IMG/VR virus record: IMGVR_UViG_3300010367_000168
Span: 1 to 64,000 of that record
Length of the DNA stretch: 64,000 bases
From: a virus
Reading direction: 5' to 3' (one strand)
Shown here in pieces: positions 1,360 to 52,046 of the stretch. Both the position numbers and the translations under genes were made by a program. Every line of letters starts with the position of its first letter. Within the stretch, counting starts at the first letter, position 1. The notes below the pieces were generated by a model, which had not been told where the DNA came from, made no database searches, and saw only the letters and a list, made by a program, of their open reading frames with translations.

Positions 1360-1636
1360 GGCCGCCCTGGCCGCGTACTGCCAAGCCTATGGTCGGTGGG
1401 TCCAGGCCGAGAAGGCCATTGCCGAGATGGCCAAGCGGGATCTCCTGACCGGTGGTCTGATGATCAAGACGAGCAACGGCAACGCCATCCAGAACCCGCT
1501 CGTCGGCACCGCCCACAAGGCCGCCGCCGACATGGTCCGGTACGCCTGCGAATTCGGCATGAGTCCGGCGGCGCGATCCCGTATCGCCGCTGGTCCGATC
1601 GAGGACGGGTCGAAGTTCGACGGGCTGCTTGCCTAA
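1154..1636 (+). CDS. terS: terminase small subunit (P27-family-like)
   Basis: N-terminus MSKLRSSAKPTALKLIQGNPGKRPINKREPKP and a helical body typical of P27-type TerS. It lies immediately upstream of terL. Confidence 0.8.
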   Translation: MSKLRSSAKPTALKLIQGNPGKRPINKREPKPISAIPDPPEVLSTAAAIEWMRITPELHALGLLTGLDRAALAAYCQAYGRWVQAEKAIAEMAKRDLLTGGLMIKTSNGNAIQNPLVGTAHKAAADMVRYACEFGMSPAARSRIAAGPIEDGSKFDGLLA

Positions 1637-3218
1637 GAAGCGCGGCGCGTTCCCCGAACGCGCAGAGAGGGTCCGCCGCTTCATTGAATGCCTGATCGTC
1701 CCGTCCGGCGTTGGCCAGGGTGGACCGCTTCGGACGCGGCGGTTCCAAAGGAAGTTCATCCAGGCGATCTATGAGCCCCATACCTTCAAGGGGCGGCGAT
1801 GGCGCCGGGTGGTGCGGCGGGCGATCCTCTCCATCGCCCGGAAGAACGGAAAGACGGCGCTGATCGCGGCCCTCGTGCTGGTCCATCTGTGCGGACCCGA
1901 GGCGATCCCGAACGGCGAAATCTACTCGGCCGCGAACGAAAGAGAGCAGGCCGCCCAGGTCTTCAAGGTCTGCCAGCAGATGATCGCGGCGGACCCGGAA
2001 CTGCGTTCTCGAGCCGGGCTTGAGGTGATCCCGTCCACGAAGACGATCATCTGCCGCCGGAACGGCTCGGTCTATCGGGCGATCTCGGCCGAGGCCGGGA
2101 CCAAGATGGGCTTGAACCCGAGCGTCGTCGTTTATGACGAGCTGGCGCAGAGCAAGAACCGGGCTCTCTACGATGCTCTCGACTCTGGCATGGGCGCCCG
2201 CGAGGAGCCGCTCTTCATCATCATCAGCACGCAATCGAATGATCCGCAGCACATCCTGTCGCAACTGATCGATGACGGGCTTCGGGCCGAAGACCCCACG
2301 ATCGTCTGCCATCTCTACGCGGTCCCCGACGACGCCGAAGACATCTTCGATGAAGCCGTCTGGCCGCTCGCTAATCCGGCTCTGGACGATTTCCGCTCCC
2401 TGGAGGACATGCGGGCGATGGCGCAACGGGCGTCACGCATGCCTTCGTTCGAGGCGTCCTTCCGCAACCTCTATTTGAACCAACGGGTCGATGCGCAGAG
2501 CCCGCTGATCCCGCGGTCGGAATGGGAGGCGTGCAAGGTCGCCGAGACCCTCCAGCCGGGCGAGCGGATCTATCTAGGGCTCGACCTGTCGGCGACCACC
2601 GATCTCACGGCCCTCGTCGCCTGCTCGGCGGACGGCGGCGACCGGATCGGGTCGTGGTTCTGGAAGCCGGGCGGGTTGGTCAAGGAGCACGAGCTGCGGG
2701 ACCGGGCGCCCTATTCCCTGTGGAAGGAGCAGGGCTGGCTCAGAGCCCCACCGGGCAAGGCCATCGACTACGGCTACATCGCCGAGCAGATCGCGGAGCT
2801 GTCCACCGACTACGACATTGTCGGCCTGGCTTATGATCGCTGGCGGATCAAGGACTTGATGCGGGAGTTCGACCGCATTGGCCTGCGCGCCTACGCGGAC
2901 GACGACAAGCCCATCCCCGGCGGCCTGCGGCTCGTCTCCTGGGGCCAGGGCTTCCGGGATATGAGCCCGGCGATCGACGCTCTGGAGATCTCGATCCTGC
3001 AGCGCAGGTTCGCTCACAACGGCAACCCGGTGCTCAACTTCTGCATCGCCAATGCGCAGGCCGTGAGCGACCCGGCCGGCAACCGTAAGCTCGACAAGTC
3101 GGCAACCCGGTTCCGCATCGACGGTGCGGTCGCGACGGCCATGGCTGTTGGGCTCAAGGCCCGCGACCTCCAGCGGGTCGTGCAGCCGACCTATCAGATG
3201 CTCTTCCTGGGGAGCTAG
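1629..3218 (+). CDS. terL: terminase large subunit
   Basis: 529 aa. ATPase N-half (ARKNGKTALIAALVL, VVYDELAQ) and nuclease C-half of Terminase_1 type. TTG start overlaps the terS stop. Confidence 0.9.
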   Translation: MPKKRGAFPERAERVRRFIECLIVPSGVGQGGPLRTRRFQRKFIQAIYEPHTFKGRRWRRVVRRAILSIARKNGKTALIAALVLVHLCGPEAIPNGEIYSAANEREQAAQVFKVCQQMIAADPELRSRAGLEVIPSTKTIICRRNGSVYRAISAEAGTKMGLNPSVVVYDELAQSKNRALYDALDSGMGAREEPLFIIISTQSNDPQHILSQLIDDGLRAEDPTIVCHLYAVPDDAEDIFDEAVWPLANPALDDFRSLEDMRAMAQRASRMPSFEASFRNLYLNQRVDAQSPLIPRSEWEACKVAETLQPGERIYLGLDLSATTDLTALVACSADGGDRIGSWFWKPGGLVKEHELRDRAPYSLWKEQGWLRAPPGKAIDYGYIAEQIAELSTDYDIVGLAYDRWRIKDLMREFDRIGLRAYADDDKPIPGGLRLVSWGQGFRDMSPAIDALEISILQRRFAHNGNPVLNFCIANAQAVSDPAGNRKLDKSATRFRIDGAVATAMAVGLKARDLQRVVQPTYQMLFLGS

Positions 3219-3295
3219 GCGGCGCGACGACCGGCTTCGTCTTGGGCCGAAGCCTGCGAGGTGGGGGCTCGGGCCGCCGCGCCGAGGCCGATCTT

Positions 3296-3315
3296 AGGGC
3301 ACACATTTGAGACCT
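3296..3315. promoter_or_regulatory. operator-like 7-6-7 dyad AGGGCAC-ACATTT-GAGACCT
   Basis: Member of the AGGGCWC-N6-GWGCCCT family seen at other intergenic sites. It lies in the terL-capsid gap. Confidence 0.4.
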
Positions 3316-3317
3316 AC

Positions 3318-3342
3318 AAGGGCGCAGTCTTGTGCCCTTTTT
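3318..3342 (+). terminator. hairpin plus T-run between terL and capsid gene
   Basis: AAGGGCGCA-GTCT-TGTGCCCTT stem (one G-U pair) followed by a T5 run. It overlaps the upstream ATG 3332, which favours ATG 3359 as the capsid gene start. Confidence 0.45.
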
Positions 3343-3358
3343 GCTTCTGGAGCTGCCC

Positions 3359-5299
3359 ATGCTTGATCGGGCCTACAGCGTCCTGCACGTCCGCAGCGTC
3401 AACGACGAGGACCGGGTGATCGAGGGCATCGCCTCGACCCCGCGGCCGGACCGTATCGGCGATGTCGTCGAGCCCATGGGCGCCAAGTTCGCGCTGCCGA
3501 TGCCTCTGCTTTGGCAGCACAACGCCACGATGCCGGTCGGCCACGTCGAGTTCGCCAAGCCGACCAAGGAAGGCATCCCGTTCCGAGCCGTCATCGCGAA
3601 GATCTCCGATGCCGGCACTCTCCGCGATCGTGTCGACGAAGCATGGCAGTCGGTCAAGGCCGGCCTCGTCCGTGCTGTGTCGATCGGCTTCCGGGCCATC
3701 GATCGCGAGTTCCTCGAAGGCGGCGGCATCCGCTTCCGCACTTGGGAATGGCTGGAGCTGTCGCTCGTAACCATTCCCGCCAATGCGGACGCCACCATCA
3801 CCGCCATTCGATCGATCGACGCCGAACTCCGGGCCGCGACCGGCCAGTCGGAGCGCAGGGCCGATCGTCCCAAGCTGCCCGGCGCCTCGGGCTCCCTGAA
3901 ACACAATGCGAAGAAAGGGGCCAAGGCTATGCCGAGGACCATCGCAGAGCAGATCGCTGCATTTGAGAACACCCGCGCCGCAAAGGCCGCGCGGATGGGC
4001 GACATCATGAACGAGGCTGGCGAGAACGATGTCACCCTCGATACCGAGCAGGCCGATGAGTATGACGGCCTGCGGGACGAGGTGAAGGAGATCGACTCCC
4101 ATCTCGGCCGGCTGCGCGAGCAGGAGGCCCTCCAGGCCGTCACCGCCCGTCCGGTCACCACGGTTGCCACTGAGCGCGGCCTGGCCGACCGGGGCCAGAG
4201 CCCGATCGCCATCGTCCGCGAGACCAAGCTGCCGCCCGGCATCGAGTTCGCCCGCTACGTCAAGGCGCTCGCCGCGGCGAAGGGCAACCCGCAGATCGCG
4301 TTCGAGATCGCGAAGTCGCAGTATCCCGAAAACGGCCGCATCCACAATGTGCTCAAGGCCGCGGTGGCCGCGGGCACCACGACCGACCCGACCTGGGCCG
4401 GCCCGCTGGTGGATTACCAGACCTTCGCCGGGGACTTCATCGAGTTCCTGCGGCCGACCACCATCCTCGGCAAGTTCGGCGCCAATGGCATCCCGAACCT
4501 GTTCAACGTGCCGTTCAACATCAAGATCCCGGCACAGACCAGCGGCGGCAATGCCTACTGGGTCGGCGAAGGCAAGCCGAAGCCCCTGACCAAGTTCGAT
4601 TTCTCGCAGATCGAACTGCGCTGGGCCAAGATCGCGAGCATCGCGGTCCTGACCGAGGAGCTGGTCCGCTTCAGCAACCCGAGCGCGGACACCCTCGTCC
4701 GCAACGCCCTGGCCGAGGCGGTGCGGGCCCGCATGGACACCGACTTCATCGACCCGGCCAAGGCCGCGGTCGCGAACGTGTCCCCGGCGTCCATCACCAA
4801 CGGCGTCGCCCCGATCGTCTCGACCGACGACGTTTCGGCCGATCTGGACGCGCTGTACACGGCGTTCATCACCGCGAACCTGTCGACGGCCAACGCGGTC
4901 TTCATCATGAGCGAGATCCTCGCGCAGCAGATCGCTCGCGTGAAGACCCCGCTCGGTCAGACCGAATATCCCAACATCGGGCCGCGCGGCGGCTCGCTGG
5001 AGGGCGTGCCCGTCATCACGTCGCAGTACGTGCCGGCTGGTACGATCATCCTCGTGGCGGCCGACCAGGTCTACCTCGCGGACGACGGTCAGGTCGTGAT
5101 CGACGCCTCCCGCGAGGCGTCCCTGGAGATGCTGGACAACCCGACCAACAGCTCGGCGCCGCCGACTGCCACGTCGCTGGTCTCGCTCTGGCAGACCAAC
5201 TCCATCGGCATCAAGGCCGAGCGCTTCATCAACTGGCAGAAGCGCCGGGCCCAGGCCGTCGCGCTCGTGACCGGCGCCAACTACGCGCCGACCACCTAA
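3359..5299 (+). CDS. prohead protease / major capsid protein fusion (HK97 type)
   Basis: N-terminal ~180 aa resemble an HK97-family prohead protease (MLDRAYSVLHVRSV..IEGIASTP..DRIGDVV). A coiled-coil linker follows, then a C-terminal HK97-type major capsid domain. TGGAG RBS precedes ATG 3359. Confidence 0.85.
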   Translation: MLDRAYSVLHVRSVNDEDRVIEGIASTPRPDRIGDVVEPMGAKFALPMPLLWQHNATMPVGHVEFAKPTKEGIPFRAVIAKISDAGTLRDRVDEAWQSVKAGLVRAVSIGFRAIDREFLEGGGIRFRTWEWLELSLVTIPANADATITAIRSIDAELRAATGQSERRADRPKLPGASGSLKHNAKKGAKAMPRTIAEQIAAFENTRAAKAARMGDIMNEAGENDVTLDTEQADEYDGLRDEVKEIDSHLGRLREQEALQAVTARPVTTVATERGLADRGQSPIAIVRETKLPPGIEFARYVKALAAAKGNPQIAFEIAKSQYPENGRIHNVLKAAVAAGTTTDPTWAGPLVDYQTFAGDFIEFLRPTTILGKFGANGIPNLFNVPFNIKIPAQTSGGNAYWVGEGKPKPLTKFDFSQIELRWAKIASIAVLTEELVRFSNPSADTLVRNALAEAVRARMDTDFIDPAKAAVANVSPASITNGVAPIVSTDDVSADLDALYTAFITANLSTANAVFIMSEILAQQIARVKTPLGQTEYPNIGPRGGSLEGVPVITSQYVPAGTIILVAADQVYLADDGQVVIDASREASLEMLDNPTNSSAPPTATSLVSLWQTNSIGIKAERFINWQKRRAQAVALVTGANYAPTT

Positions 5300-7760: not shown

Positions 7761-9143
7761 ATGCGGATCTTCGGCCTCACCATCTCCAGGACCGCGGACG
7801 AGGCCAAGGCGGTGCCGGCCAATCTGCGCGGCCCATCCAATCGCGGCGGGTGGTGGCCGTTCGTCCGCGAGCCCTATGCGGGAGCGTGGCAGCAGAACGT
7901 CGAATGGTCCACCGACGAGGTGCTGGCCTATTTCGCCGTTTACCGCTGCATCAGCTTGATCAGCTCCGACATCGCCAAGATGGAGTTGATGCTGGTCAAT
8001 TGGGCCAATGGCATCTGGACCGAGACCGACAGCCCGGCCTTCTCGCCGGTCCTGGCCAAGCCGAACCCGTACCAGACGCGCATCCAGTTTTTCCAGTCGT
8101 GGGTGATCTCGAAGCTCGTCAACGGCAACGCCTACGTCCTCAAGGAGCGCGATCAGCGCGGCGTCGTGGTGGCGATGTACGTGCTCGACCCGTGGCGGTG
8201 CCAGCCGCTCATCGCCGAGGACGGCTCGGTCTACTATCAGCTCGCGGTCGACACGCTCAACGGGATCGAGAACAGCGTCGTCGTACCGGCCCGCGAGATC
8301 ATTCACGACCGGTGGAACACGCTCTACCACCCCCTCTGCGGGACCTCGCCGATCTTCGCTTGCGGCCTCGCCGCCATGCAAGGGCTCAAGATCCAGAACA
8401 ACTCGGCGGCGTTCTTCGGCAATGGGTCGCAGCCGGGCGGCATCCTGACTGCTCCTGGCGCGATCAGTGATGAGACCGCTACTCGGCTGAAGGCGCATTG
8501 GGACGCCAACTACAGCGGCACCAATGTCGGCAAGATCGCGGTGCTCGGTGATGGCCTCAAGTATGAGGCCATGGCGCTCTCTGCCGTGGACTCGCAGCTC
8601 ATCGAGCAGCTCCGGTGGACGGCCGAGGTGGTCTGCGCGGCGTTCGGGGTCCCTGCCTACATGGTCGGGATCGGCGCAACCCCGACCTACAACAACATCG
8701 AGGCGCTCTCGCAGCAGTATTACTCGCAGTGCCTCCAGATCCACATCGAGAGCATCGAGATCTGCCTCAACGAAGGGCTCGCGCTTCCAAAAGCCTACGG
8801 CACCCGCTTCTCGATCGACGATCTGCTCCGGATGGACACGGCCACGATGATCAAGGCCGAGGCCGAGGCCGTGGGCGCTGGCATCAAGGCGCCGAACGAG
8901 AGCCGGCTTCGGCTCAACCTCCCGCCGGTCAAGGGTGGCGCCACTCCCTATTTGCAGCAGCAGAACTACTCGCTCGCAGCCCTGGACGAGCGCGACCGCG
9001 GCGACCCTTTTGCGAAGCCGGCGCCACAACCGGCGCCCCAGCTCGCGCCGCCCGAGGCCGATTCCGAGGAGGAGGAGCCGACCGACGTAACCGCGGCCTT
9101 GGTCGCGCGGATCGAGCGCGCATGGGAGGCTGCTCATGTTTGA
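7761..9143 (+). CDS. portal protein (HK97 family)
   Basis: 460 aa. VLAYFAVYRCISLISSDIAKM, NGNAYVLKERD and QQYYSQCLQIHIESIE are typical of HK97-type portals. Acidic C-terminus. Confidence 0.9.
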   Translation: MRIFGLTISRTADEAKAVPANLRGPSNRGGWWPFVREPYAGAWQQNVEWSTDEVLAYFAVYRCISLISSDIAKMELMLVNWANGIWTETDSPAFSPVLAKPNPYQTRIQFFQSWVISKLVNGNAYVLKERDQRGVVVAMYVLDPWRCQPLIAEDGSVYYQLAVDTLNGIENSVVVPAREIIHDRWNTLYHPLCGTSPIFACGLAAMQGLKIQNNSAAFFGNGSQPGGILTAPGAISDETATRLKAHWDANYSGTNVGKIAVLGDGLKYEAMALSAVDSQLIEQLRWTAEVVCAAFGVPAYMVGIGATPTYNNIEALSQQYYSQCLQIHIESIEICLNEGLALPKAYGTRFSIDDLLRMDTATMIKAEAEAVGAGIKAPNESRLRLNLPPVKGGATPYLQQQNYSLAALDERDRGDPFAKPAPQPAPQLAPPEADSEEEEPTDVTAALVARIERAWEAAHV

Positions 9144-27108: not shown

Positions 27109-27825
27109 ATGATCTCTGCTGATCTGTTGAGCGCCCTGTGTCCCCAGGGCGAGGGGACCGTCATTGCCGGCCTGGCGCGATCGTTCGATTTGCTGCTGCC
27201 CGCCTTTACTCTCTCGACACCGCTCCGCCAGGCCCACTTTGTCGCCCAAGCAGCGGTCGAGACGGCCTATTTCCGGACCCTGCGTGAGTACGGCACCGGG
27301 CAGCGATACGCCCCCTACGTCGGCCGCGGGCCGGGGCAGCTCACCTGGGAGGCCAACTACGTCGAAATGGGCCGCCGCCTGTCGCTCCCGTTGAAGGCGC
27401 ACCCCGAGCTGGTGGAGGACCCGGCCCTCGGGACGGTGGTCTTCCTGATGTACTGGATGGATCACAACCTCAACCGTTACGCCGACGAGGACGATGGCCG
27501 GGCGATCTCGCGGGCCATCAATCGTGGCTCGGCGGCATCGGACAAGGCGGCCAACGCCGAGGCCGAGCGCCTCGCGATGGTTGCCAAGGCCAAGGCGCTC
27601 ATCGGAGGCGCTAGTGGGGGCGCCCCGCGCTCGCTAGCGGCGCTCCAGGTCGCGCTCAACAGACTTGGCGCGGCGCCCAAGCTGTCGGTCGATGGCCGCA
27701 TGGGCCCCGCTACCGAGGCCGCGGTAATCGATTTTCAGGCATCCCGAGGGCTGGTGGTCGATGGCAAGGCCGGCCCGGTGACATGGGCCGTCATCGACGA
27801 CGCCCTGGCCGAACTCGACGCCTAG
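27109..27825 (+). CDS. endolysin: GH19-like (chitinase-type) catalytic domain plus PG_binding_1 domain
   Basis: LRQAHFVAQAAVETAYFRTLREYG..YVGRGPGQLTWEANY (GH19 phage lysin signature) and a C-terminal LQVALNRLGA..LSVDGRMGPATEAAVIDFQASRGLVVDGKAGPVTW. Confidence 0.85.
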   Translation: MISADLLSALCPQGEGTVIAGLARSFDLLLPAFTLSTPLRQAHFVAQAAVETAYFRTLREYGTGQRYAPYVGRGPGQLTWEANYVEMGRRLSLPLKAHPELVEDPALGTVVFLMYWMDHNLNRYADEDDGRAISRAINRGSAASDKAANAEAERLAMVAKAKALIGGASGGAPRSLAALQVALNRLGAAPKLSVDGRMGPATEAAVIDFQASRGLVVDGKAGPVTWAVIDDALAELDA

Positions 27826-28037: not shown

Positions 28038-28226
28038 ATGGACTTCGGCAGGGTCTCAAAGGCAATAGCTGGGGCGTTCGCAGCCGGCATAGGTGGCGCC
28101 GGTACGAGTGCAATTGTGATCCCCGATGGCGTGACGATGCCGTGGTACGGCTATGTCCTAGTCGGGGCGCTCAACGCAGTGCTTGGGTTCGCGGTCGTCT
28201 ACTTCGCGCCGCGGAACACGGCCTAG
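28038..28226 (+). CDS. small membrane protein (holin/antiholin candidate)
   Basis: 62 aa, Gly/Ala-rich hydrophobic segments. Last gene of the plus-strand late block. Confidence 0.45.
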   Translation: MDFGRVSKAIAGAFAAGIGGAGTSAIVIPDGVTMPWYGYVLVGALNAVLGFAVVYFAPRNTA

Positions 28227-28465
28227 CGTTGGAAGGTGGAGCGCCTTGCGGGTGGTCTTCGGAGCCCTCGCTCGTGCTCCTTCAATGCGGCTCGCCTTTC
28301 GATCATCAACTCCTTGAGCCGCTCGCAAACCGGGTCCGGCACCTCGGCCAGCACCCTCCACTTATAAATTGTCCGACGATTGATCCCCAGCGCACGCGAC
28401 ATCGGAACTATCCAGTTGTCGCCAAAGAGGAGCGCCCCAGCCTTTTCTAAGTAATCGATGTTCAT
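28223..28465 (-). CDS. small HTH DNA-binding protein (Cro/YdaS-like)
   Basis: MSRALGINRRTIYKWR helix-turn-helix. The second ATG (28465) has GGAG at proper spacing. Convergent with, and 4 bp overlapping, the late operon end. Confidence 0.55.
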   Translation of the reverse strand: MNIDYLEKAGALLFGDNWIVPMSRALGINRRTIYKWRVLAEVPDPVCERLKELMIERRAALKEHERGLRRPPARRSTFQR

Positions 28466-28489
28466 TCGCATCTCCGCTGTAGACGAATC

Positions 28490-28520: not shown

Positions 28521-28699
28521 GTGACCGAAATCCGCTGCCCATCGATGTTCTCGGCACGTTCAGGTTTCCTAATTCAGCCTGCCATCTGGGGCACCATTCT
28601 GAGCCCGCGAGGGCACACATGCGGGCCCGGCCACCTTACCAAAGACTGCCGCTTCGTTGTACTGCCTAATGCCACCCTGGTCCCCACGGTGACTGCGAA

Positions 28700-28721
28700 G
28701 GGGGCACATTTGTGTGCCCCC
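28700..28721. promoter_or_regulatory. perfect dyad GGGGGCACA-TTTG-TGTGCCCCC (operator family member)
   Basis: 9-bp arms read directly. Core GGGGCAC-N6-GTGCCCC matches the 7-6-7 family. Half-sites occur at 28611 and 28757. Confidence 0.45.
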
Positions 28722-29158
28722 TCCGTACACGGATGTGAGCCCTGCTGGAAAATGCCACAGGGCACAGTTTTGACTTTAATTCGGACCATTGAGCCAAATG
28801 CATATCATATGACGTGCCGGGTTGCGACTCCCCGCAGAGTCAAGGATATCCCCTTATAACTATTCCAATCCGCCGAGAATTTGAGCGCTCGTGGCAAATT
28901 CTTGGATGTATTCTTGGACAGCCCGGTGTTCTAGCAGAGTCGTCGGACCGTCACTTCACCCTAATTACAGGGTCCGCTCTGCCAGTACACTTTAACATGG
29001 CAATTCCAATGTTTACCGTCGTTCACAAAGACTCTGCCCGAAGGGGTTGCAATGGCCCGCGACTCCGGATTAACTTCTCAGAGGGAGGTTGTTCGTGCAA
29101 TTGATCGACCGATTTCTTGGTGTCCTACCCCGACCCCAAAAGGGCGGGGCAATAGCGA

Positions 29159-29190
29159 AGCGCGCCGGCAACGAACGCGCTCCTGTTTTT
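29159..29190 (+). terminator. weak terminator-like hairpin upstream of the dual-HTH gene
   Basis: AGCGCG-11 nt-CGCGCT followed by CCTGTTTTT. Confidence 0.3.
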
Positions 29191-29216
29191 CTCCAACGGA
29201 CATAGGAGGCGAAACG

Positions 29217-30992
29217 ATGCATCGAGCATCAGGGGAAACTTTGACTAAAATTGTTTCCAATTCTACCTTGACGATCCCTCAACGGCATTTGCGAACTGTC
29301 GATTTCCGGCCACTTTCACGACAGGAAGGCCAGGGGATGACATCAGGCGACGACGCATCCAACGATACCGCCATCGCCCTCGCGCTCAAGCGAGCGGCAG
29401 GCGCCAAGCTCTTGAAGCAGCACAAGAAACGTGAGGCGCGCGAGGCGACCAAGCAGGCTCGCCTAGACCGCCTCAAGGTCAAGCAACAGGCACCGGAGGA
29501 TCGCCCGCCTACGCCGATCCCGGCGCCGCGGACCGGTGCGGCGCTCCTGGTGGAGGCGCAGCATTTCCTCCAGGACAAGGCCCAGCGCGAGCAGCGCATC
29601 CGACAGCTCTCGGCCATAGCCATGGGGCGGGCCAGCACACCAGAGCCGGTCGTGACGCAGCGGCTACCGCCGCCCCCTCCATCGGGCCCCGATGATCCCC
29701 GCGTCCTGAATGGGACGCTGGCCCCATCACCGAAGGTCGCGGCGATCCTCAGGGCGAGCGTGTCCGAGGCAGCGACCCAAGCGGCGGCAACGAAGCCCCC
29801 GCGACCCGAGCAAACGGGCCGTCCGGAAGCGTGGCTGGAGGTGCTGCGATCCGGCACCCCGAGTCAAATCCTCGCCTGCCGGCGTGCGAAAGACCTCAAG
29901 GGGGACGATCTCGAAGCGTTCAACCGGGCGCGGCGGCGTGAGATCGATGCCGTCCTCGGCGGGCGGCGATTGAAGGATCTGTCTCCGGAAGAGATGCAGG
30001 CTTACAGCGCCGTGAAGGCGCGCCATCTGGCCCTCATGGTCGACCACCACGCTCCGCGGGCCGTGCGCAAGGGTGCCGCGCGTTGCGCAGTCGGGAGGGC
30101 GATCGACAAGCTCCGCCACGAGGCGGGCCTCACGGTCAGGCAGCTCGCCGAGCGGGCTGGTCTGTCGCGAAGCCGGCTGACCAATGCGATTGCTGGCAGG
30201 CAGCAACTCAGGCGAGACGAAGCCGCCCTGCTCGGACACTTCTTCAACGTCAACCCGGAGCCATTCATGAGCACCACCACCACGTCGAGCCCGCCCAAAA
30301 CCAAGCCGGCGCCCCTTGCGCTCAATGGCGTCACCCCGCCCAAGACGAACCCAGAGCGGCGGGGCTACAACGAGCAGCACGACCTGAACATTCTGTTGAA
30401 GCTGACCGAGCCGCGGGACGGCGACAGCCACTTCCAGGCCAGCCTTCGGCGGATCATGCGGGCCCGCGGGCTCATGGCGCAGCACGTGGCCAAGCTCTGC
30501 GGGCTGTCGGCAGACGTGCCCGGTCGGCTCCTGCGGACCGGGATGGCCCCGGCGCCGGCTACGCGCGAGAAGCTGATCAGCGGCCTCGGCGTTACCGAGG
30601 CGGAGCTGTTCGGCAGCGAGGAGCCGCTGGCGGAGGCGGCGCCCGTCCGGCCCCACGGGGTCGTCCAGGCCGAAGCACTCGCGCCTGTGGCCCAGGAGGC
30701 CGAGGGCGAACTCGCGCCCGACGAGGCTCGCGGCGCCGTCCTGGCAACGCCCATGGTGCCGGTCGAGATGGGTGTCCCGATGCCTCCGATCGTCCTGCGC
30801 TCCGACCGGTATCCGTGGACCATGCCCAAGGGTGGCAGCTTCAAGGCCGAGGTGCCGTTCGGCATGCCCTGGGCCACTTTCCGCAGCCGGTTCGTGAAGA
30901 TGATCGATCGCCAGAGCGAGAGCCTCGGTCACTGGTACTCGTTCGAGGAGGCCGAGGACCAGGGGTCGATCCGGGTGTGGAGGGTCATCTGA
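29217..30992 (+). CDS. large regulatory protein with two XRE-type HTH segments
   Basis: GGAGG RBS 7 nt before ATG 29217 (alternative ATG 29337). HTH-like LTVRQLAERAGLSRSRLTNAIAGRQQL and MAQHVAKLCGLSADVPGRLLRTG. Lys/Arg/Gln-rich and Pro-rich N-half. Unknown C-terminal domain. Confidence 0.5.
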   Translation: MHRASGETLTKIVSNSTLTIPQRHLRTVDFRPLSRQEGQGMTSGDDASNDTAIALALKRAAGAKLLKQHKKREAREATKQARLDRLKVKQQAPEDRPPTPIPAPRTGAALLVEAQHFLQDKAQREQRIRQLSAIAMGRASTPEPVVTQRLPPPPPSGPDDPRVLNGTLAPSPKVAAILRASVSEAATQAAATKPPRPEQTGRPEAWLEVLRSGTPSQILACRRAKDLKGDDLEAFNRARRREIDAVLGGRRLKDLSPEEMQAYSAVKARHLALMVDHHAPRAVRKGAARCAVGRAIDKLRHEAGLTVRQLAERAGLSRSRLTNAIAGRQQLRRDEAALLGHFFNVNPEPFMSTTTTSSPPKTKPAPLALNGVTPPKTNPERRGYNEQHDLNILLKLTEPRDGDSHFQASLRRIMRARGLMAQHVAKLCGLSADVPGRLLRTGMAPAPATREKLISGLGVTEAELFGSEEPLAEAAPVRPHGVVQAEALAPVAQEAEGELAPDEARGAVLATPMVPVEMGVPMPPIVLRSDRYPWTMPKGGSFKAEVPFGMPWATFRSRFVKMIDRQSESLGHWYSFEEAEDQGSIRVWRVI

Positions 30993-42708: not shown

Positions 42709-42756
42709 CGCAGGGCACAGATCAATGCCCTTCGCAGGGCACAGATCAATGCCCTT
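42709..42756. repeat. perfect 24-bp tandem duplication, each unit an operator-type dyad
   Basis: CGCAGGGCACAGATCAATGCCCTT x2 read directly. Core is AGGGCAC-AGATCA-ATGCCCT. Confidence 0.9.
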
Positions 42757-43202: not shown

Positions 43203-43661
43203 TCAGGAAATCTGCGGCGGGAACACCAGCACCTCAACCCCGTCGAGGGTGCTTAAATGCCGGATGATTTCCTCGCGGACCGCGAGCCATTCCAGGCCGC
43301 CTCTGCCGCAGCCCAGGGCCGGCAAGGCGATGGAAGCAATGCCGCGCCGCTGGAGGGACGCGGCAAGGCGCTCCAGCCCCCAGGACACCCATTCCAGGCG
43401 GCTCGGCTGGCGCCACGACTGCTTTGTGGGAAAGTGGACGATCCACCTGGGCACCGAGCCGATCTTGTAGTCGAACACGTGCAGGCGCCCTGGCTGGAGG
43501 GCTTGGCGGTGGCACGCGGCCATGTAGGCGTGGCTTGCTTCGGGGAAGCGGCTCCGGAACTCCTTCGCAAGGCCGGCCCCCATGACGCCATCCGTGTTGA
43601 CCGGGTTGACCAGGGCCTCGGCCTTCGCTTCGAAGAGCGAGCCGTCGCAGTAACGGATCAT
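43203..43661 (-). CDS. stand-alone macro domain protein (ADP-ribose binding/hydrolase type)
   Basis: ALVNPVNTDGVMGAGLAKEFRSRFPE and IALPALGCGRGGL are characteristic of TARG1/DarG-like macro domains. 152 aa with no fused domain. Confidence 0.75.
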   Translation of the reverse strand: MIRYCDGSLFEAKAEALVNPVNTDGVMGAGLAKEFRSRFPEASHAYMAACHRQALQPGRLHVFDYKIGSVPRWIVHFPTKQSWRQPSRLEWVSWGLERLAASLQRRGIASIALPALGCGRGGLEWLAVREEIIRHLSTLDGVEVLVFPPQIS

Positions 43662-43958
43662 TTACCTCCTCCTCTGCCGGGCCCGGCGGCTCCGCCCGTG
43701 CTGGCCGGGATCGCCGCCAGCAGCGATGTAGGCTCGCCTGCCCTCATCGGTGGCGCCGAACCATTCGGTCGTCTGGCCATCTTCGATCCGAGCCCGGAGC
43801 GCTTTGATCCAGCCCTGCCGTTCGAGGCTGCGCTTGGTGCCTACCGAGACGACGAAGAGGGGCCCGATCCGCCAGCCGGCTTGATCGGACCCCCATATCT
43901 CGGGCTTGTGGCCCGACGTAAACAGCGTCTTCAGGGCCTCGAATTGGGGAGGCGTCAC
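43662..43958 (-). CDS. hypothetical protein with basic tail (98 aa)
   Basis: GTG 43958. Its TAA stop directly abuts the macro gene ATG, and the GGAGGAGG RBS lies in its 3' end. Confidence 0.4.
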   Translation of the reverse strand: MTPPQFEALKTLFTSGHKPEIWGSDQAGWRIGPLFVVSVGTKRSLERQGWIKALRARIEDGQTTEWFGATDEGRRAYIAAGGDPGQHGRSRRARQRRR

Positions 43959-43972
43959 CTGTCCGCCGCCTC

Positions 43973-44182
43973 TCAGACGGTGGCTGCTGTTGCGCGACCA
44001 TTCAGCCGATCGGCCTCGCCTTCGATCCGGCCACGGTCGTGCGTCCATTCGCCGATGATATGAAACGTCGGCGTCGCATCGGTCTCATAGACCCCGTTCG
44101 GCGCGCGTGATTGCGACCACCAGTGGGCGAGTGCCCATCCGGCGCGGCTGTCGAAGATCACGATGTACTTGTGATTGGTCAT
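43973..44182 (-). CDS. hypothetical protein (69 aa)
   Basis: GGGAGGGGG RBS before ATG 44182. Confidence 0.45.
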   Translation of the reverse strand: MTNHKYIVIFDSRAGWALAHWWSQSRAPNGVYETDATPTFHIIGEWTHDRGRIEGEADRLNGRATAATV

Positions 44183-44193
44183 CGCCCCCTCCC

Positions 44194-44544
44194 TCACGCG
44201 GCAGCCATGGTGACATCCAGGTGGATGGCATCGTAGGGGAACAGCACCCCGGACTCGGTGCCAATGATCTGCCGGTCCAGGAGACCGGCATCGATCAGCG
44301 CATGGATGTCGGTGTGAACGCCCTTGAAGTCGCGGTCCACCCGCCGGGCGATCTCGCGCATGGTCATGGCGCCCTGGCCGGCCATCGCCCGCAGGATGTC
44401 CCACCGCTTGGGCGTGATCACTTTGTGCAGCGCCTCGAACGTCCGGAAATCAATCCGGGGCTCCTGGGGCTCGCCTTTGTACGCCGCAATGAAGCGAGCC
44501 TCAGTGTCGGCCAGGGACGCGACGCCGATTGTAACGGTGTTCAT
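44194..44544 (-). CDS. TumA-like winged-helix antitoxin/transcriptional regulator
   Basis: MNTVTIGVASL..PRIDFRTFEALHKVITPKRWDILRAM..MTMREIARRV.RDFKGVHTDIHALIDAGLL resembles the HVO_A0114/MarR-like partners of DUF6516 toxins. ATGA overlap with the toxin stop. Confidence 0.55.
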   Translation of the reverse strand: MNTVTIGVASLADTEARFIAAYKGEPQEPRIDFRTFEALHKVITPKRWDILRAMAGQGAMTMREIARRVDRDFKGVHTDIHALIDAGLLDRQIIGTESGVLFPYDAIHLDVTMAAA

Positions 44545-44831
44545 TTCAGGATCTCCATCCAGGTTGCAACATCCGCCCGAAAGTCGGCCAGCAGGGTCTC
44601 GACATCGACAAAGCGGTAAGGGATCTCGGTGCTGCCGAGGTGCTTGTGGTCGCCCTTGCCGCGCTCGTTGTCGTACCGCATCACGCACTCGCCCTTGGAC
44701 ACGAGGGCGAGGCGGTATTTGACGTTGTGCTTGCTCCCCGGCACCGGGGCCGGCACCGCCCAAACGACCATCTCGACGAAAGCCGTCTCGGTCAGGATCA
44801 GTCGGTTGCGTAGGAGAAGCTTGGCGTTCAT
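44541..44831 (-). CDS. TumE-like (DUF6516) toxin candidate
   Basis: MNAKLLLRNRLILTETAFVEMVVWAVPAPVPGSKHNVKYRLALV..RYDNERGKGDHKHLG..EIPYRF matches my recollection of the DUF6516/TumE signature. Confidence 0.55.
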   Translation of the reverse strand: MNAKLLLRNRLILTETAFVEMVVWAVPAPVPGSKHNVKYRLALVSKGECVMRYDNERGKGDHKHLGSTEIPYRFVDVETLLADFRADVATWMEILK

Positions 44832-44832
44832 G

Positions 44833-44852
44833 AGGGCACAATACTGTGCCCC
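44833..44852. promoter_or_regulatory. operator dyad AGGGCAC-AATACT-GTGCCCC abutting the toxin start codon
   Basis: Read directly. Begins 2 nt upstream of the TumE-like ATG. Confidence 0.55.
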
Positions 44853-44950
44853 AACGGTGATGTAAAGCACTCCATCACCCACAGAGTGAGGGCCGCCTGG
44901 AGGATGCCCGGCGGCCCTGTTTTCATGCATCGCGGTTTGTAAGTCGGCGT

Positions 44951-44978
44951 GGGGTGCCTTGGGGCGCCTTGGGGCGCC
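44951..44978 (+). repeat. three tandem 10-bp repeats GGGGYGCCTT
   Basis: ggggtgcctt ggggcgcctt ggggcgcc, with helical-turn periodicity. Confidence 0.8.
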
Positions 44979-45008
44979 GATTCCGGTTTGTAACGCCTAA
45001 CCTGTTGA

Positions 45009-45020
45009 TTTCACGTGAAA
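45009..45020. other. perfect 12-bp palindrome TTTCACGTGAAA (candidate recombination core or operator)
   Basis: Read directly. Lies centrally between the 9-mer pairs. Confidence 0.4.
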
Positions 45021-45127
45021 CGCCGGTTCCTGGAAGTTCTTCTGTTCCGCCCTGTATGTCGCAGAAATCCTGGAGTTTCGGGCAGGTTTGTAAAAGGTTT
45101 GTAGAAAGGACCCGGTTGATCTGTTCC

Positions 45128-46530: not shown

Positions 46531-47646
46531 TCAACCCACAAGCCGGAAGCGATCACGCATCTTGCGCCGCACTCCTTCCTGGAGCTGCGCCTTCTCGGCC
46601 TCCTCGCAATACCGCTGCACCTCCGAAAGGGTCTCGTGGCCGGTCACGGTCATGATCTCGTGCGGGGTGCAGCCAGCCTCGGCCAGCCGCCGGGCAGCGG
46701 CCTTGCGGAGGCCATGGGCCACGCATCGGCTCGGGAGCTTGGCGGCATCGAAGTTGGCGGCCATCCAGACGCTCAAGCGGGAGGCGATGAATGGCTGGTG
46801 GATGCTGTTGAGCAGGATGTGCTGCTGGATGTCGGTCGGGATCTTTTCCCTCTCGCAGGTTTCCCGCCACGCATCGAGCGCCTCGACCAACTCGGGCTCG
46901 CAGTTGATGTAAAGGGTCTTGTCCTTCTTCGCGCCCTTGCCCTTCTTCTGCTGGACGGCAATGGTCGCCCGGCGGTTGCCCTCCTGATCGGTGAACCACT
47001 GGATCTCGGGCCACTTCATTTTGGCAACGTCGATCCCGCGCTGCCCGGTGAACAGAAACAGGGTGAAGGCCGTCCGCTCGCGCGTCCCGACCTTCCATCG
47101 CGTCTCGTACTGAGCGATCTCCTGCTCATTCCAGGTGTGGTGCTTGCCGATCTCCAGCTTCTCGACCCCGAGGGTCGGGTCGCGGTCCATCCAACCCCGC
47201 CGGATCACGAACTTGGCCAGTTGGCGCAGCGCCTTCAGCAGGTTGTTATGCTGGCCGGGGCGATCGTGGTAGGTCGCAAAAAATTCCTCGATCTTGGCGA
47301 CCGGGGTGCCGCGCACCGACCGGTGGCCATGGACCTTGCAGAAGATGGCCAAGATGCGCCGGGTCTTCTTCCGCGACTCCTCGCCCTGCTTGCCGAGCCC
47401 AACCGCGAGGAAATCCTTCACCGCGGCGTTCCACGTCTGCTGCCCGGTGCTGGTCTTCATCGCCTCGGGGAGCGGGGCCTGCTGGGGGACGAAGCCGAGC
47501 GCCATGTTGTACTGCGCCATGAACTCCGGGGAGCCCGGCTTGCCGATCAACCGCACCGCCTTCTGCTTCGGGAACCGGAAATAGGACCGCTCTCGTCCAT
47601 GCCGGTCGGTGAAGGTGTTCACGTATTTGAGGGTGACGGTGGCCAT
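46531..47646 (-). CDS. int: tyrosine recombinase / phage integrase
   Basis: 371 aa from ATG 47646 (GAGGTG RBS). C-terminal catalytic signature ..AHGLRKAAARRLAEAGCTPHEIMTVTGHETLSEVQRY... N-terminal arm-binding-like segment RSYFRFP..VRLIGKPGSPEF. Confidence 0.9.
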   Translation of the reverse strand: MATVTLKYVNTFTDRHGRERSYFRFPKQKAVRLIGKPGSPEFMAQYNMALGFVPQQAPLPEAMKTSTGQQTWNAAVKDFLAVGLGKQGEESRKKTRRILAIFCKVHGHRSVRGTPVAKIEEFFATYHDRPGQHNNLLKALRQLAKFVIRRGWMDRDPTLGVEKLEIGKHHTWNEQEIAQYETRWKVGTRERTAFTLFLFTGQRGIDVAKMKWPEIQWFTDQEGNRRATIAVQQKKGKGAKKDKTLYINCEPELVEALDAWRETCEREKIPTDIQQHILLNSIHQPFIASRLSVWMAANFDAAKLPSRCVAHGLRKAAARRLAEAGCTPHEIMTVTGHETLSEVQRYCEEAEKAQLQEGVRRKMRDRFRLVG

Positions 47647-47651
47647 CGTGG

Positions 47652-47885
47652 TCACCTCACCCAAACGGCGCCACGCTGGAGCGTTTCCAGCGTGCGATAA
47701 TACTCGCGGGTGAAGACCGGGCTGCTGGGGTCGCCGGGCAACCGAAATTTGACCGTGATCGGGCGGCTGGGCGCCTTGGTTGGCGCCGCTGGGTCCGCTG
47801 CGGGGAGATAGGTTGCGACGAAGTAGTAGGCCGTGCCGTGCGGGTTCGGAATGGACCGCAGATGCTTCAATTCGGTCAGTGACAT
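47652..47885 (-). CDS. stand-alone integrase-N-terminal (arm-binding)-like protein, RDF candidate
   Basis: HGTAYYFV...ITVKFRLPGDPSSPVFTREYYRTL aligns by eye with Int residues HGRERSYFRF..AVRLIGKPGSPEFMAQYNMAL. GGAGAC RBS. Confidence 0.5.
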   Translation of the reverse strand: MSLTELKHLRSIPNPHGTAYYFVATYLPAADPAAPTKAPSRPITVKFRLPGDPSSPVFTREYYRTLETLQRGAVWVR

Positions 47886-47900
47886 TATGGTCTCCGGGTT

Positions 47901-47938
47901 TGGGCACTTGTATGTGCCAGGGCACACATTAGTGCCCT
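47901..47938. promoter_or_regulatory. two abutting operator dyads upstream of the int operon
   Basis: TGGGCAC-TTGTAT-GTGCCA and AGGGCAC-ACATTA-GTGCCCT share base 47919. Confidence 0.55.
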
Positions 47939-47966
47939 TCGCCGCAGATCTGGAAGGGCTTTTTTT
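47934..47966 (+). terminator. plus-strand hairpin plus T7 (terminator-like) in a minus-strand gene region
   Basis: GCCCTTC-12 nt-GAAGGGC followed by TTTTTTT. Confidence 0.35.
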
Positions 47967-47974
47967 ACAAACCT

Positions 47975-47994
47975 AGGGCTCACTTGTGTGACCT
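47975..47994. promoter_or_regulatory. operator dyad AGGGCTC-ACTTGT-GTGACCT
   Basis: Read directly. Overlaps the stop of the HTH_17-like gene. Confidence 0.45.
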
Positions 47995-51486: not shown

Positions 51487-51506
51487 AGGGCTCACATCCG
51501 AGCCCT
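51487..51506. promoter_or_regulatory. operator dyad AGGGCTC-ACATCC-GAGCCCT at the leftward early promoter region
   Basis: Perfect 7-bp arms read directly, 30-50 bp upstream of the leftward operon. Confidence 0.55.
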
Positions 51507-51593: not shown

Positions 51594-51646
51594 GGTTTGT
51601 AAGTGCATAAGGCCTCCGTGGGGTACTATGGGGCGCTATGGGGCAT
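51594..51646 (+). repeat. composite element GGTTTGTAAGT + 3 x 10-bp GGGGYRCTAT (second copy of the 44934-44978 element)
   Basis: ggtttgtaagt ... ggggtactat ggggcgctat ggggcat. Same order, orientation and periodicity as in the 44.9 kb gap. Confidence 0.7.
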
Positions 51647-51707: not shown

Positions 51708-51727
51708 GTGACCTGATTTTAGGTCAC
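51708..51727. promoter_or_regulatory. dyad GTGACCT-GATTTT-AGGTCAC upstream of the rightward early gene
   Basis: Perfect 7-bp arms. A second dyad TTGCGG-CGAT-CCGCAA lies at 51751-51766, and a TATAGT -10-like hexamer at 51746-51751. Confidence 0.45.
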
Positions 51728-51785: not shown

Positions 51786-52046
51786 ATGCTCTATTGCGAC
51801 GCCGCCCTGTATCGAGTGCAGCGATGGATCGAGTCCCTCGATCCGCACCTTCGCTCGCCGCTGATCCTTGCTCGCCTGACAGGGCTCAGTTCTGGGACCC
51901 TGACCCGATTTCTTCGGCCGGGCGGGGTTGGGAATGTGACCCTCGATACCCTCCGCCGCCTGGAGCAGCACGTGCCCGCCGATTTCATGCCGCTGCGCAT
52001 GCAGGCGGAGATCACGCGGGACGACGAGCCGGCAAACGCCGCTTGA
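51786..52046 (+). CDS. small HTH regulator (Cro/CII-like position)
   Basis: LILARLTGLSSGTLTRFLRPG HTH-like segment. First gene of the rightward operon. Confidence 0.5.
   Translation: MLYCDAALYRVQRWIESLDPHLRSPLILARLTGLSSGTLTRFLRPGGVGNVTLDTLRRLEQHVPADFMPLRMQAEITRDDEPANAA

Follow-up and report, generated by a model that had tools for sequence, protein, structure and literature searches.

A toxin-antitoxin (TA) gene pair of the TumE-TumA type is carried by the temperate phage, roughly 70 kb in size, to which the 64,000-nucleotide (nt) stretch analysed here belongs (IMG/VR record IMGVR_UViG_3300010367_000168, positions 1 to 64,000; hereafter the window). Our analysis indicates that the promoter of this pair is probably a hybrid, in which TumA would bind a palindrome of its own type, O1, at the -35 element, and a phage regulator other than TumA would bind O2, a dyad over the -10 element that recurs throughout the phage genome. 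The module would then be subject to local as well as phage-wide control, and it is most likely the phage circuit that controls the toxin module, not the reverse. An earlier note on this DNA had offered two readings of the dyad, namely that the main phage regulator also controls the TA module, or that global regulation of the phage is exerted by the antitoxin. The former fits all the evidence presented below, while the latter is not supported by it, since O1 covaries with the recognition helix of TumA and the dyads are kept in a relative without tumE and tumA.

The pair consists of two overlapping genes:
44541-44831, minus strand: tumE-like toxin gene encoding 96 amino acids (starting MNAKLLL), with its ATG at 44829-44831
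44194-44544, minus strand: tumA-like gene encoding a winged-helix partner of 116 amino acids

The assignment of these genes in the earlier note, as a TumE-like (DUF6516) gene with the RYDNERGKGDHKH signature and an overlapping winged-helix TumA-like gene, was borne out by profile searches for toxin and partner alike. The toxin matched the Pfam TumE profile PF20126 with an E-value of 1.5e-15 and 57.4 bits (score cut-off 23.4 bits) over positions 2-80 of 81, and it also matched phrog_16135 (6.7e-31). The partner matched Pfam PF25212 (HVO_A0114) with an E-value of 1.1e-26, as well as phrog_11214. As read from the sequence, the ATG of tumA overlaps the tumE stop codon in an ATGA at 44541-44544. 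In an alignment of 68 TumE homologues the RYDNERGKGDHKH block was the best-conserved part of the toxin, and the motif R-Y-D-N-E-x-G-K-G-D-H-x-H, which is intact in the window toxin, was almost invariant. The AlphaFold2 model of the partner (predicted local distance difference test score, pLDDT, of 91.6) shows a winged helix-turn-helix with a predicted recognition helix at residues 73-85, and its nearest solved folds are regulators of the ArsR/MarR/NolR type; no solved relative of either protein was found in the PDB. When the TumA alignment was scanned against one genome per GTDB species, 80 loci were obtained, and in at least 70 of these a tumE homologue lies directly upstream of tumA, mostly with an overlap of 4 nt. 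The window pair thus combines the full-length profile match, the conserved motif and the tight two-gene operon that mark a TumE, and the partner, which adjoins the TumE gene and is predicted to bind DNA, has the features of a TumA.

The TumE-TumA superfamily was defined in 2023 (Durairaj et al., Nature; PMC10584680). In that study, growth arrest, inhibition of translation and neutralisation by the partner were demonstrated for six gammaproteobacterial pairs of subcluster 1a only, and the partners of TumE were found to be diverse and unrelated across subclusters. The window pair resembles these systems in that its toxin is a clear PF20126/DUF6516 member encoded bicistronically with a predicted DNA-binding partner. 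It differs from them in being toxin-first, whereas the DUF6516 gene is mostly located downstream of its partner in PMC10584680, in having a 116-residue HVO_A0114 winged helix as its partner, whereas the validated antitoxin constructs are mostly shorter, and in its shorter toxin. By homology to the validated subcluster, the window TumE is predicted to be toxic. It could be argued that the pair does not constitute a working TA module in this phage, for example because the toxin is degenerate or because the genes encode a regulator with an accessory protein. That only pairs of subcluster 1a, with their shorter partners, have been examined experimentally (PMC10584680) would favour this view, as would the toxin-first order and the short TumE (92-100 residues) of the window subfamily. 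However, the conserved motif is intact, the tight two-gene layout recurs in at least 70 genomes, the Pfam score lies far over the cut-off and the promoter strongly resembles that of an autoregulated module. We therefore regard a non-functional pair as improbable.

The promoter of tumE comprises the following elements, where F73 refers to residue 73 of TumA:
44857-44878: O1, a TumA-type palindrome GTGATG-N10-CATCAC of the F73 type, spanning the -35 and having the geometry of the family palindrome GTTG-N10-CAAC
44834-44851: O2, the phage dyad GGGCAC-N6-GTGCCC, covering the -10 in place of a second TumA-type palindrome
44838-44866, minus strand: sigma-70-like promoter with TTTACA at 44866-44861, a spacing of 17 nt and TATTGT at 44843-44838

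On the gene strand this region reads GTGATGgagtgcTTTACAtCAC-cgttg-GGGCACAGTATTGTGCCC-tc-ATG. In a promoter scan the two hexamers scored 9 matches out of 12, and two promoters of this kind were found against 0.1 expected in the region. Because the -10 is only 6 nt away from the ATG, the tumE mRNA is probably leaderless. O2, with the sequence GGGCACAATACTGTGCCC, ends 2 nt from the tumE ATG and is a perfect 6-6-6 palindrome that can also be read as 7-4-7. The earlier note had placed this dyad correctly but had described it as 7-6-7, which does not hold for the arms, since the outermost A and C are not complementary. O1, which lies in the same promoter, was missed by the earlier note. No O1-type sites above chance level were detected elsewhere in the window, where O1 is the only good match.

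The architecture of this promoter becomes clear when it is compared with that of the family at large. Alignment of 63 non-phage tumE promoters on the start codon gave the consensus GTTGG-N5-TTGACAACA-N8-TGTTGG-TATAAA-CTCCAAC-ATG. The family promoter, common to about 70 chromosomal tumE-tumA pairs, thus contains two 18-bp GTTG-N10-CAAC palindromes, the first surrounding the -35 and the second covering the -10 and running up to the start codon. CAAC occupies positions -4 to -1 in 50 of the 63 loci, abutting the start codon, which leaves no room for a ribosome-binding site, and the family tumE mRNA is therefore likely to be leaderless as well. The phage promoter agrees in its geometry with the family consensus TTGACA-17-TATAAA-7-ATG; in it, the 18-bp phage dyad, lying over the TATTGT -10, takes the place of the second TumA palindrome almost to the base. 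None of the 63 non-phage promoters contains GGGCAC or GTGCCC.

The half-site present in a tumE promoter follows residue 73 of its TumA, which is the first residue of the recognition helix predicted by the AlphaFold2 model: valine or isoleucine occurs with GTTG, and phenylalanine with GATG. Accordingly, the helix RDVKAVHGD pairs with GTTGG and RDVRAVHSD with GTTGC, and RDFKGVHTD pairs with GATG in three independent lineages, namely the chromosomal loci L087/L088, the chromosomal locus L089 and the clade of the present phages. O1 is thus an antitoxin-type palindrome that overlaps the -35 and covaries with the recognition helix, as is expected of an autoregulated type II TA promoter, and we take it to be the putative site at which TumA itself binds. 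When deposited phages were searched by tblastn with TumA, a single match was obtained, in an Escherichia coli Stx1c phage, whose module has an ordinary, self-contained TumA promoter with four half-sites; for this reason we consider the hybrid promoter to be specific to the present phage family. As a separate observation, the chromosomal tumE-tumA pair of L087 (JGI Ga0401355_00068, 2723-3351), which has an RDF-type helix, is inserted in opposite orientation in a ribosomal protein cluster, between the adenylate kinase/secY and the rpsM-rpsK-rpoA genes, an unusual site for a TA module.

O2 belongs to a family of dyads that extends over the phage genome, as the earlier note had recognised. With at most one mismatch allowed, the window contains 9 matches against 0.49 expected, a number that was reached in none of 100 shuffles, and all 9 fall in non-coding stretches. 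Besides O2, the sites are arranged as follows:
28589, 28611 and 28702 (28589-28719): three dyads of region B, between a gene for an 82-amino-acid helix-turn-helix (HTH) protein (28223-28471, minus strand) and a gene for a 646-amino-acid double-XRE protein (29052-30992, plus strand)
42713 and 42737 (42713-42754): two tandem dyads, GGGCACAGATCAATGCCC, between tRNA-Gln and a NinI-like phosphatase gene, before the phosphatase operon
47902-47919, 47920-47937 and 47976-47993: three dyads upstream of the int operon
51488-51505: GGGCTC-N6-GAGCCC, a variant of the dyad, at the early leftward promoter, divergent from the HTH_26 gene

The three sites that the earlier note had reported before the int operon were recovered; the one at 47976 has two mismatches in the window and is perfect in relatives. 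The site that it had reported at the early leftward promoter was likewise found, in the form of the variant at 51488, which is kept in two relatives and replaced by GGGCAC...ATGCCC in a third (L090).

In four to six related phages, regions B to F contain the same arms at the same positions with different spacers. The dyads thus form conserved islands within diverged intergenic DNA, their arms constant and their spacers variable, and this is true of the three int-operon dyads in four phages. At 42713-42754 even the spacer is identical in three phages. O2 is kept at the tumE promoter of all relatives that carry tumE. Altogether, the dyads are more frequent than expected, lie between genes, cluster at promoters and are kept at orthologous positions in relatives, which is the pattern of a phage-wide operator.

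Of two sites before the capsid gene, where the earlier note had placed a dyad, one did not belong to this family. The element at 3320-3337, between the terminase and capsid genes, resembles an intrinsic terminator, consisting of a hairpin followed by a T-run with compensatory stem changes in relatives, and it was rejected as a family member. A weak site at 3297-3314 (GGGCACACATTTGAGACC) is conserved as CGGCACACATTCGAGACC and is the only conserved site before the capsid gene. A sigma-54 promoter (TGGCAC-N5-TTGC) was rejected because its spacing is off by one. With regard to the tandem dyads at 42713-42754, we note that the unit AGGGCACAGATCAATGCCCT is duplicated there with a 24-nt period on the transcribed strand, about 10 nt past the 3' end of tRNA-Gln, and that on this strand a hairpin with a G-U pair is possible.

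Such features raise the question of whether the dyads, instead of serving as operators for a protein, function as hairpins in RNA or DNA, such as terminators, processing sites or attenuators. The perfect sites would allow a 7-bp stem with a 4-nt loop, the 3320 element is a true terminator hairpin, the region C site follows a tRNA and, on the transcribed strand, permits a G-U pair, and the 51488 site departs from the consensus on both arms with pairing preserved. Against this, the same arm sequence recurs at five unrelated loci in six phages with varying spacers, most single-arm mismatches disrupt pairing without compensation, most sites lack a T-run, and at the tumE promoter the dyad is located upstream of the likely start of transcription. 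We therefore consider it very improbable that the dyads function as hairpins, and treat them in what follows as candidate operators for a protein.

Two natural comparisons bear on the question of whether this protein could be TumA. The first is a sister phage (SRR8205315) whose TumA has I73 instead of F73. In this phage O1 reads GTGTTG-N10-CAACAC, and O2 as well as the dyads at int and at the leftward early promoter (P_L) are still of the GGGCAC type. Because O1 changed in the I73 phage while the dyads stayed the same, O1 follows TumA and the dyads do not. The second is a relative, IMGVR_UViG_3300019889_000008, of which 71.3 of 73.8 kb were recovered and in which, over this length, tumE and tumA were not found. 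Its proteins are related to those of the window at 78% identity for the integrase, 80% for an 86-amino-acid HTH protein, 63% for the 82-amino-acid HTH protein and 59% for the 646-amino-acid XRE protein. Of the five dyad regions that are conserved, four (B, C, D and E) still have dyads in this TA-less phage, which are found in a region of the 28.6-kb type, before the phosphatase gene, before int and at the syntenic cargo promoter. Its site D, GGGCACGGTATTGTGGCC, contains the same TATTGT and precedes an unrelated gene of 97 amino acids that has a Shine-Dalgarno leader and no O1. Thus, neither the TA-less relative nor the I73 variant gave any sign that the dyad family depends on TumA or covaries with it.

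These observations weigh against the idea of TumA as a global regulator of the phage that, by itself or in a complex with TumE, occupies the GGGCAC dyads throughout. A dyad abutting the tumE start occupies the usual place of an antitoxin operator, a dimeric winged helix of the ArsR/MarR type would suit 18-bp palindromes, and the dyad is kept at this position in all relatives with tumE. However, the TA-less relative retains the dyad family, the dyad is present in none of the 63 non-phage TumA promoters, and the helix covaries with O1, not with O2. Moreover, the recognition helix of the phage TumA is almost identical to those of the chromosomal homologues from L087 and L089, and the promoters of these two have sites of the GATG type only. 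A global role of TumA is therefore highly unlikely.

The search for the protein that binds the dyads yielded candidates encoded by the phage:
51786-52046, plus strand: 86-amino-acid HTH protein of the Cro/CI type with a weak match to Pfam HTH_26
28223-28471, minus strand: 82-amino-acid HTH protein, the second candidate, adjoining the densest dyad cluster
29052-30992, plus strand: 646-amino-acid protein that contains two HTH segments of the XRE type and long linkers of low complexity; its gene flanks the densest dyad cluster on the right

The 86-residue protein is present in every relative at 60-83% identity with a conserved HTH, and has only six homologues, all inside this phage family. The 646-residue protein is likewise kept in all relatives, at 42-64% identity. 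The HTH motifs of the 86- and 82-residue proteins are invariant, and by position these two are the best candidates for the dyad regulator. A different perfect dyad, GTGACC-N8-GGTCAC, is located at 51708-51727, about 60 bp upstream of the gene for the 86-residue protein, and is partly conserved in relatives; it suggests a second type of operator in the early control region.

Alternatively, a transcription factor of the host might bind the dyads, so that the phage would read a host signal at all of the dyad promoters. This would agree with the fact that our search for a phage-encoded binder gave candidates only, and with the invariance of the arms across phages whose regulators are only 60-83% identical. 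Yet the densest clusters adjoin phage regulator genes in two divergent control regions, as is typical of autoregulated phage repressors. Furthermore, of the 69 loci obtained when metagenomes were scanned for tandem dyads, only one is a known relative, and nearly all are tandem palindromic repeats unrelated to the dyads. To our knowledge, the motif matches no LexA, CtrA or sigma-54 consensus. Binding by a host factor thus appears decidedly improbable, and we favour a regulator encoded by the phage.

The following picture would account for these findings. The operon of tumE, tumA and the cargo genes would be transcribed as a leaderless mRNA under dual repression. O1 would be the ancestral autoregulatory palindrome, read by a TumA dimer and serving local feedback only. 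O2, which would have replaced the second TumA palindrome, would cover the -10 and the start of transcription, and a dimeric regulator encoded by the phage would bind it together with the other dyads. In this way, the TA and cargo operon would be coupled to the switch that controls int, the leftward early operon, the phosphatase operon and the 28.6-kb region. The state of the TA module in lysogens, silent or active, would then depend on the phase, lysogenic or lytic, in which the dyad regulator works.

Several points weigh against this picture, or at least limit it. Firstly, a few loci of the RDV type, in the sphingomonads L010 and L033, have half-sites of both kinds, GTTG and GATG, and residue 73 is therefore not the sole determinant of specificity. 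Secondly, the I73 case depends on an in-frame join of two contigs from one sample over an overlap of 30 nt. Thirdly, the 2.5 kb missing from the TA-less genome lie in the region of the tail genes, and the dyad at site D of this genome has one mismatch. In addition, the role of an HVO_A0114-type partner as antitoxin is predicted only, and the validated TumA constructs appear to be shorter. Lastly, all candidate regulators are present in every relative, so that covariation cannot choose among them; with so few and such similar phages in the family, no choice can be made between the 86- and the 82-residue HTH proteins. Even so, we consider the hybrid promoter, with TumA at O1 and a phage regulator at O2, to be the probable arrangement.

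Antitoxin palindromes that overlap the -35 and the -10, with two adjacent operator sites, are known from phd-doc of P1 and from relBE. The window promoter differs from these in that the operator of another regulon has taken the place of one of the two sites. One short site repeated in many intergenic regions of a temperate phage genome is likewise known, from the stoperators of the mycobacteriophages L5 and Bxb1; here, the sites are instead symmetric 18-bp dyads, about 10 in number and concentrated at the promoters of the leftward block, and their binders are candidates only. A TA module embedded in the CI/Cro network of a prophage has been described for paaR2-paaA2-parE2 of the cryptic prophage CP-933P (Jurenas et al. 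2021, mBio; PMC8630535), a TA operon inside a lambdoid regulatory network with CI-like and Cro-like control. In that case a dedicated CI-like regulator is co-transcribed with the TA genes and the module is located in the immunity region (PMC8630535), whereas the window module occupies a cargo slot next to int, its antitoxin appears to keep O1, and the phage-wide operator appears to have been grafted over the -10. A TA module within a CI/Cro network is therefore already known, and what is new here is that the antitoxin appears to keep one operator of its own, the other having been exchanged for the phage-wide one. No operators of TumE-TumA have been described in published work; the promoter of the leaderless type with two palindromes and the specificity residue were derived in the present analysis.

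If the model holds, the window offers a concrete, testable case of a mobile TA module that was rewired upon its domestication by a phage, for which the sister phage with other cargo behind the same operator provides a natural control. The idea of an antitoxin that runs the lysis-lysogeny circuit would be removed. The model would also be the first operator model for the little-studied TumE/HVO_A0114 family, with two GTTG-N10-CAAC palindromes, a leaderless-type promoter and residue 73 as a determinant of specificity.

The pair is located just downstream of the int operon in a variable cargo slot. Downstream of tumA, the remainder of the cargo operon spans 43203..44182 on the minus strand; it is listed here together with a hairpin on the other side of the pair:
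43973-44182, minus strand: orf69
43662-44048, minus strand: 128-amino-acid winged-helix protein, weakly PadR/BrxR-like
43203-43661, minus strand: stand-alone DarG-like macrodomain (PADLOC DarG, E = 1e-60)
44889-44918: GC-rich hairpin upstream of the tumE promoter, kept in the relative without the TA module and marking the right-hand edge of the variable cargo segment

The genes between the site D dyad and the macrodomain gene differ in content among all relatives, which defines this stretch as a variable cargo slot. The BrxR/PadR-like protein was rejected as the common binder of the dyads because it is not conserved among the phages. A further-reading proposal, which we regard as rather unlikely, is that site D is a regulated cargo slot whose content is exchanged by recombination inside the promoter core, and that the phage regulator releases TumE as a timed brake. 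Recombination would take place between the -35 and the -10, bringing in tumE-tumA here and, in the sister phage, the 97-amino-acid gene along with other genes for winged-helix proteins, and incoming modules would therefore inherit the phage operator over the -10. If this were so, the phage regulator would stop the antitoxin from being transcribed once a defined stage is reached, and TumE would become a timed brake on translation, with possible uses in host shut-off, exclusion of superinfecting phages or enforcement of the lysis-lysogeny decision.

The macrodomain at 43203-43661 closely resembles the antitoxin DarG in the N-terminal half of the latter (NCBIfam match of 2e-58, under the cut-off). 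There is no DarT near it, and it is kept in all relatives. It is plausibly a phage counter-defence against ADP-ribosylation of DNA by DarT. In a sister phage (L237, 12725-12997), a gene of the Acb2/Tad1-hairpin family, which has an anti-CBASS/anti-Thoeris sponge fold, adjoins the helicase gene, and this fits phages that collect anti-defence cargo.

The remaining genes of the window are those of a temperate phage and include ERF and Gp157 recombination proteins, a primase/helicase and two tRNAs, as well as the following:
1629-3218: large terminase
3332-5299: major head/protease fusion
7761-9143: portal
27109-27825: endolysin
46531-47643: tyrosine integrase

A megablast search of positions 40-52 kb of the window against deposited phages gave no match, and no relatives were found in a phosphatase-based scan of viral contigs. 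Between the int-operon dyads and int, a small open reading frame (47652-47886, minus strand) resembles the N-terminal arm-binding part of the integrase, and in L090 the N-terminus of Int matches two places; this reading frame may represent a duplicated or split arm-binding domain. A second repeat, GGTTTGTAA, occurs in 5 exact copies in the window against 0.04 expected. Three copies lie in the 480-bp non-coding stretch directly upstream of the TA promoter (44934-45093), one lies among the int dyads (47965-47973) and one in the early control region (51594-51602). A longer composite, GGTTTGTAAG..GTGGGGT..TGGGGCGC..TGGGGC, is present at both 44.93 kb and 51.59 kb. These repeats may be arm-type sites of Int (attP) or sites for another regulator.

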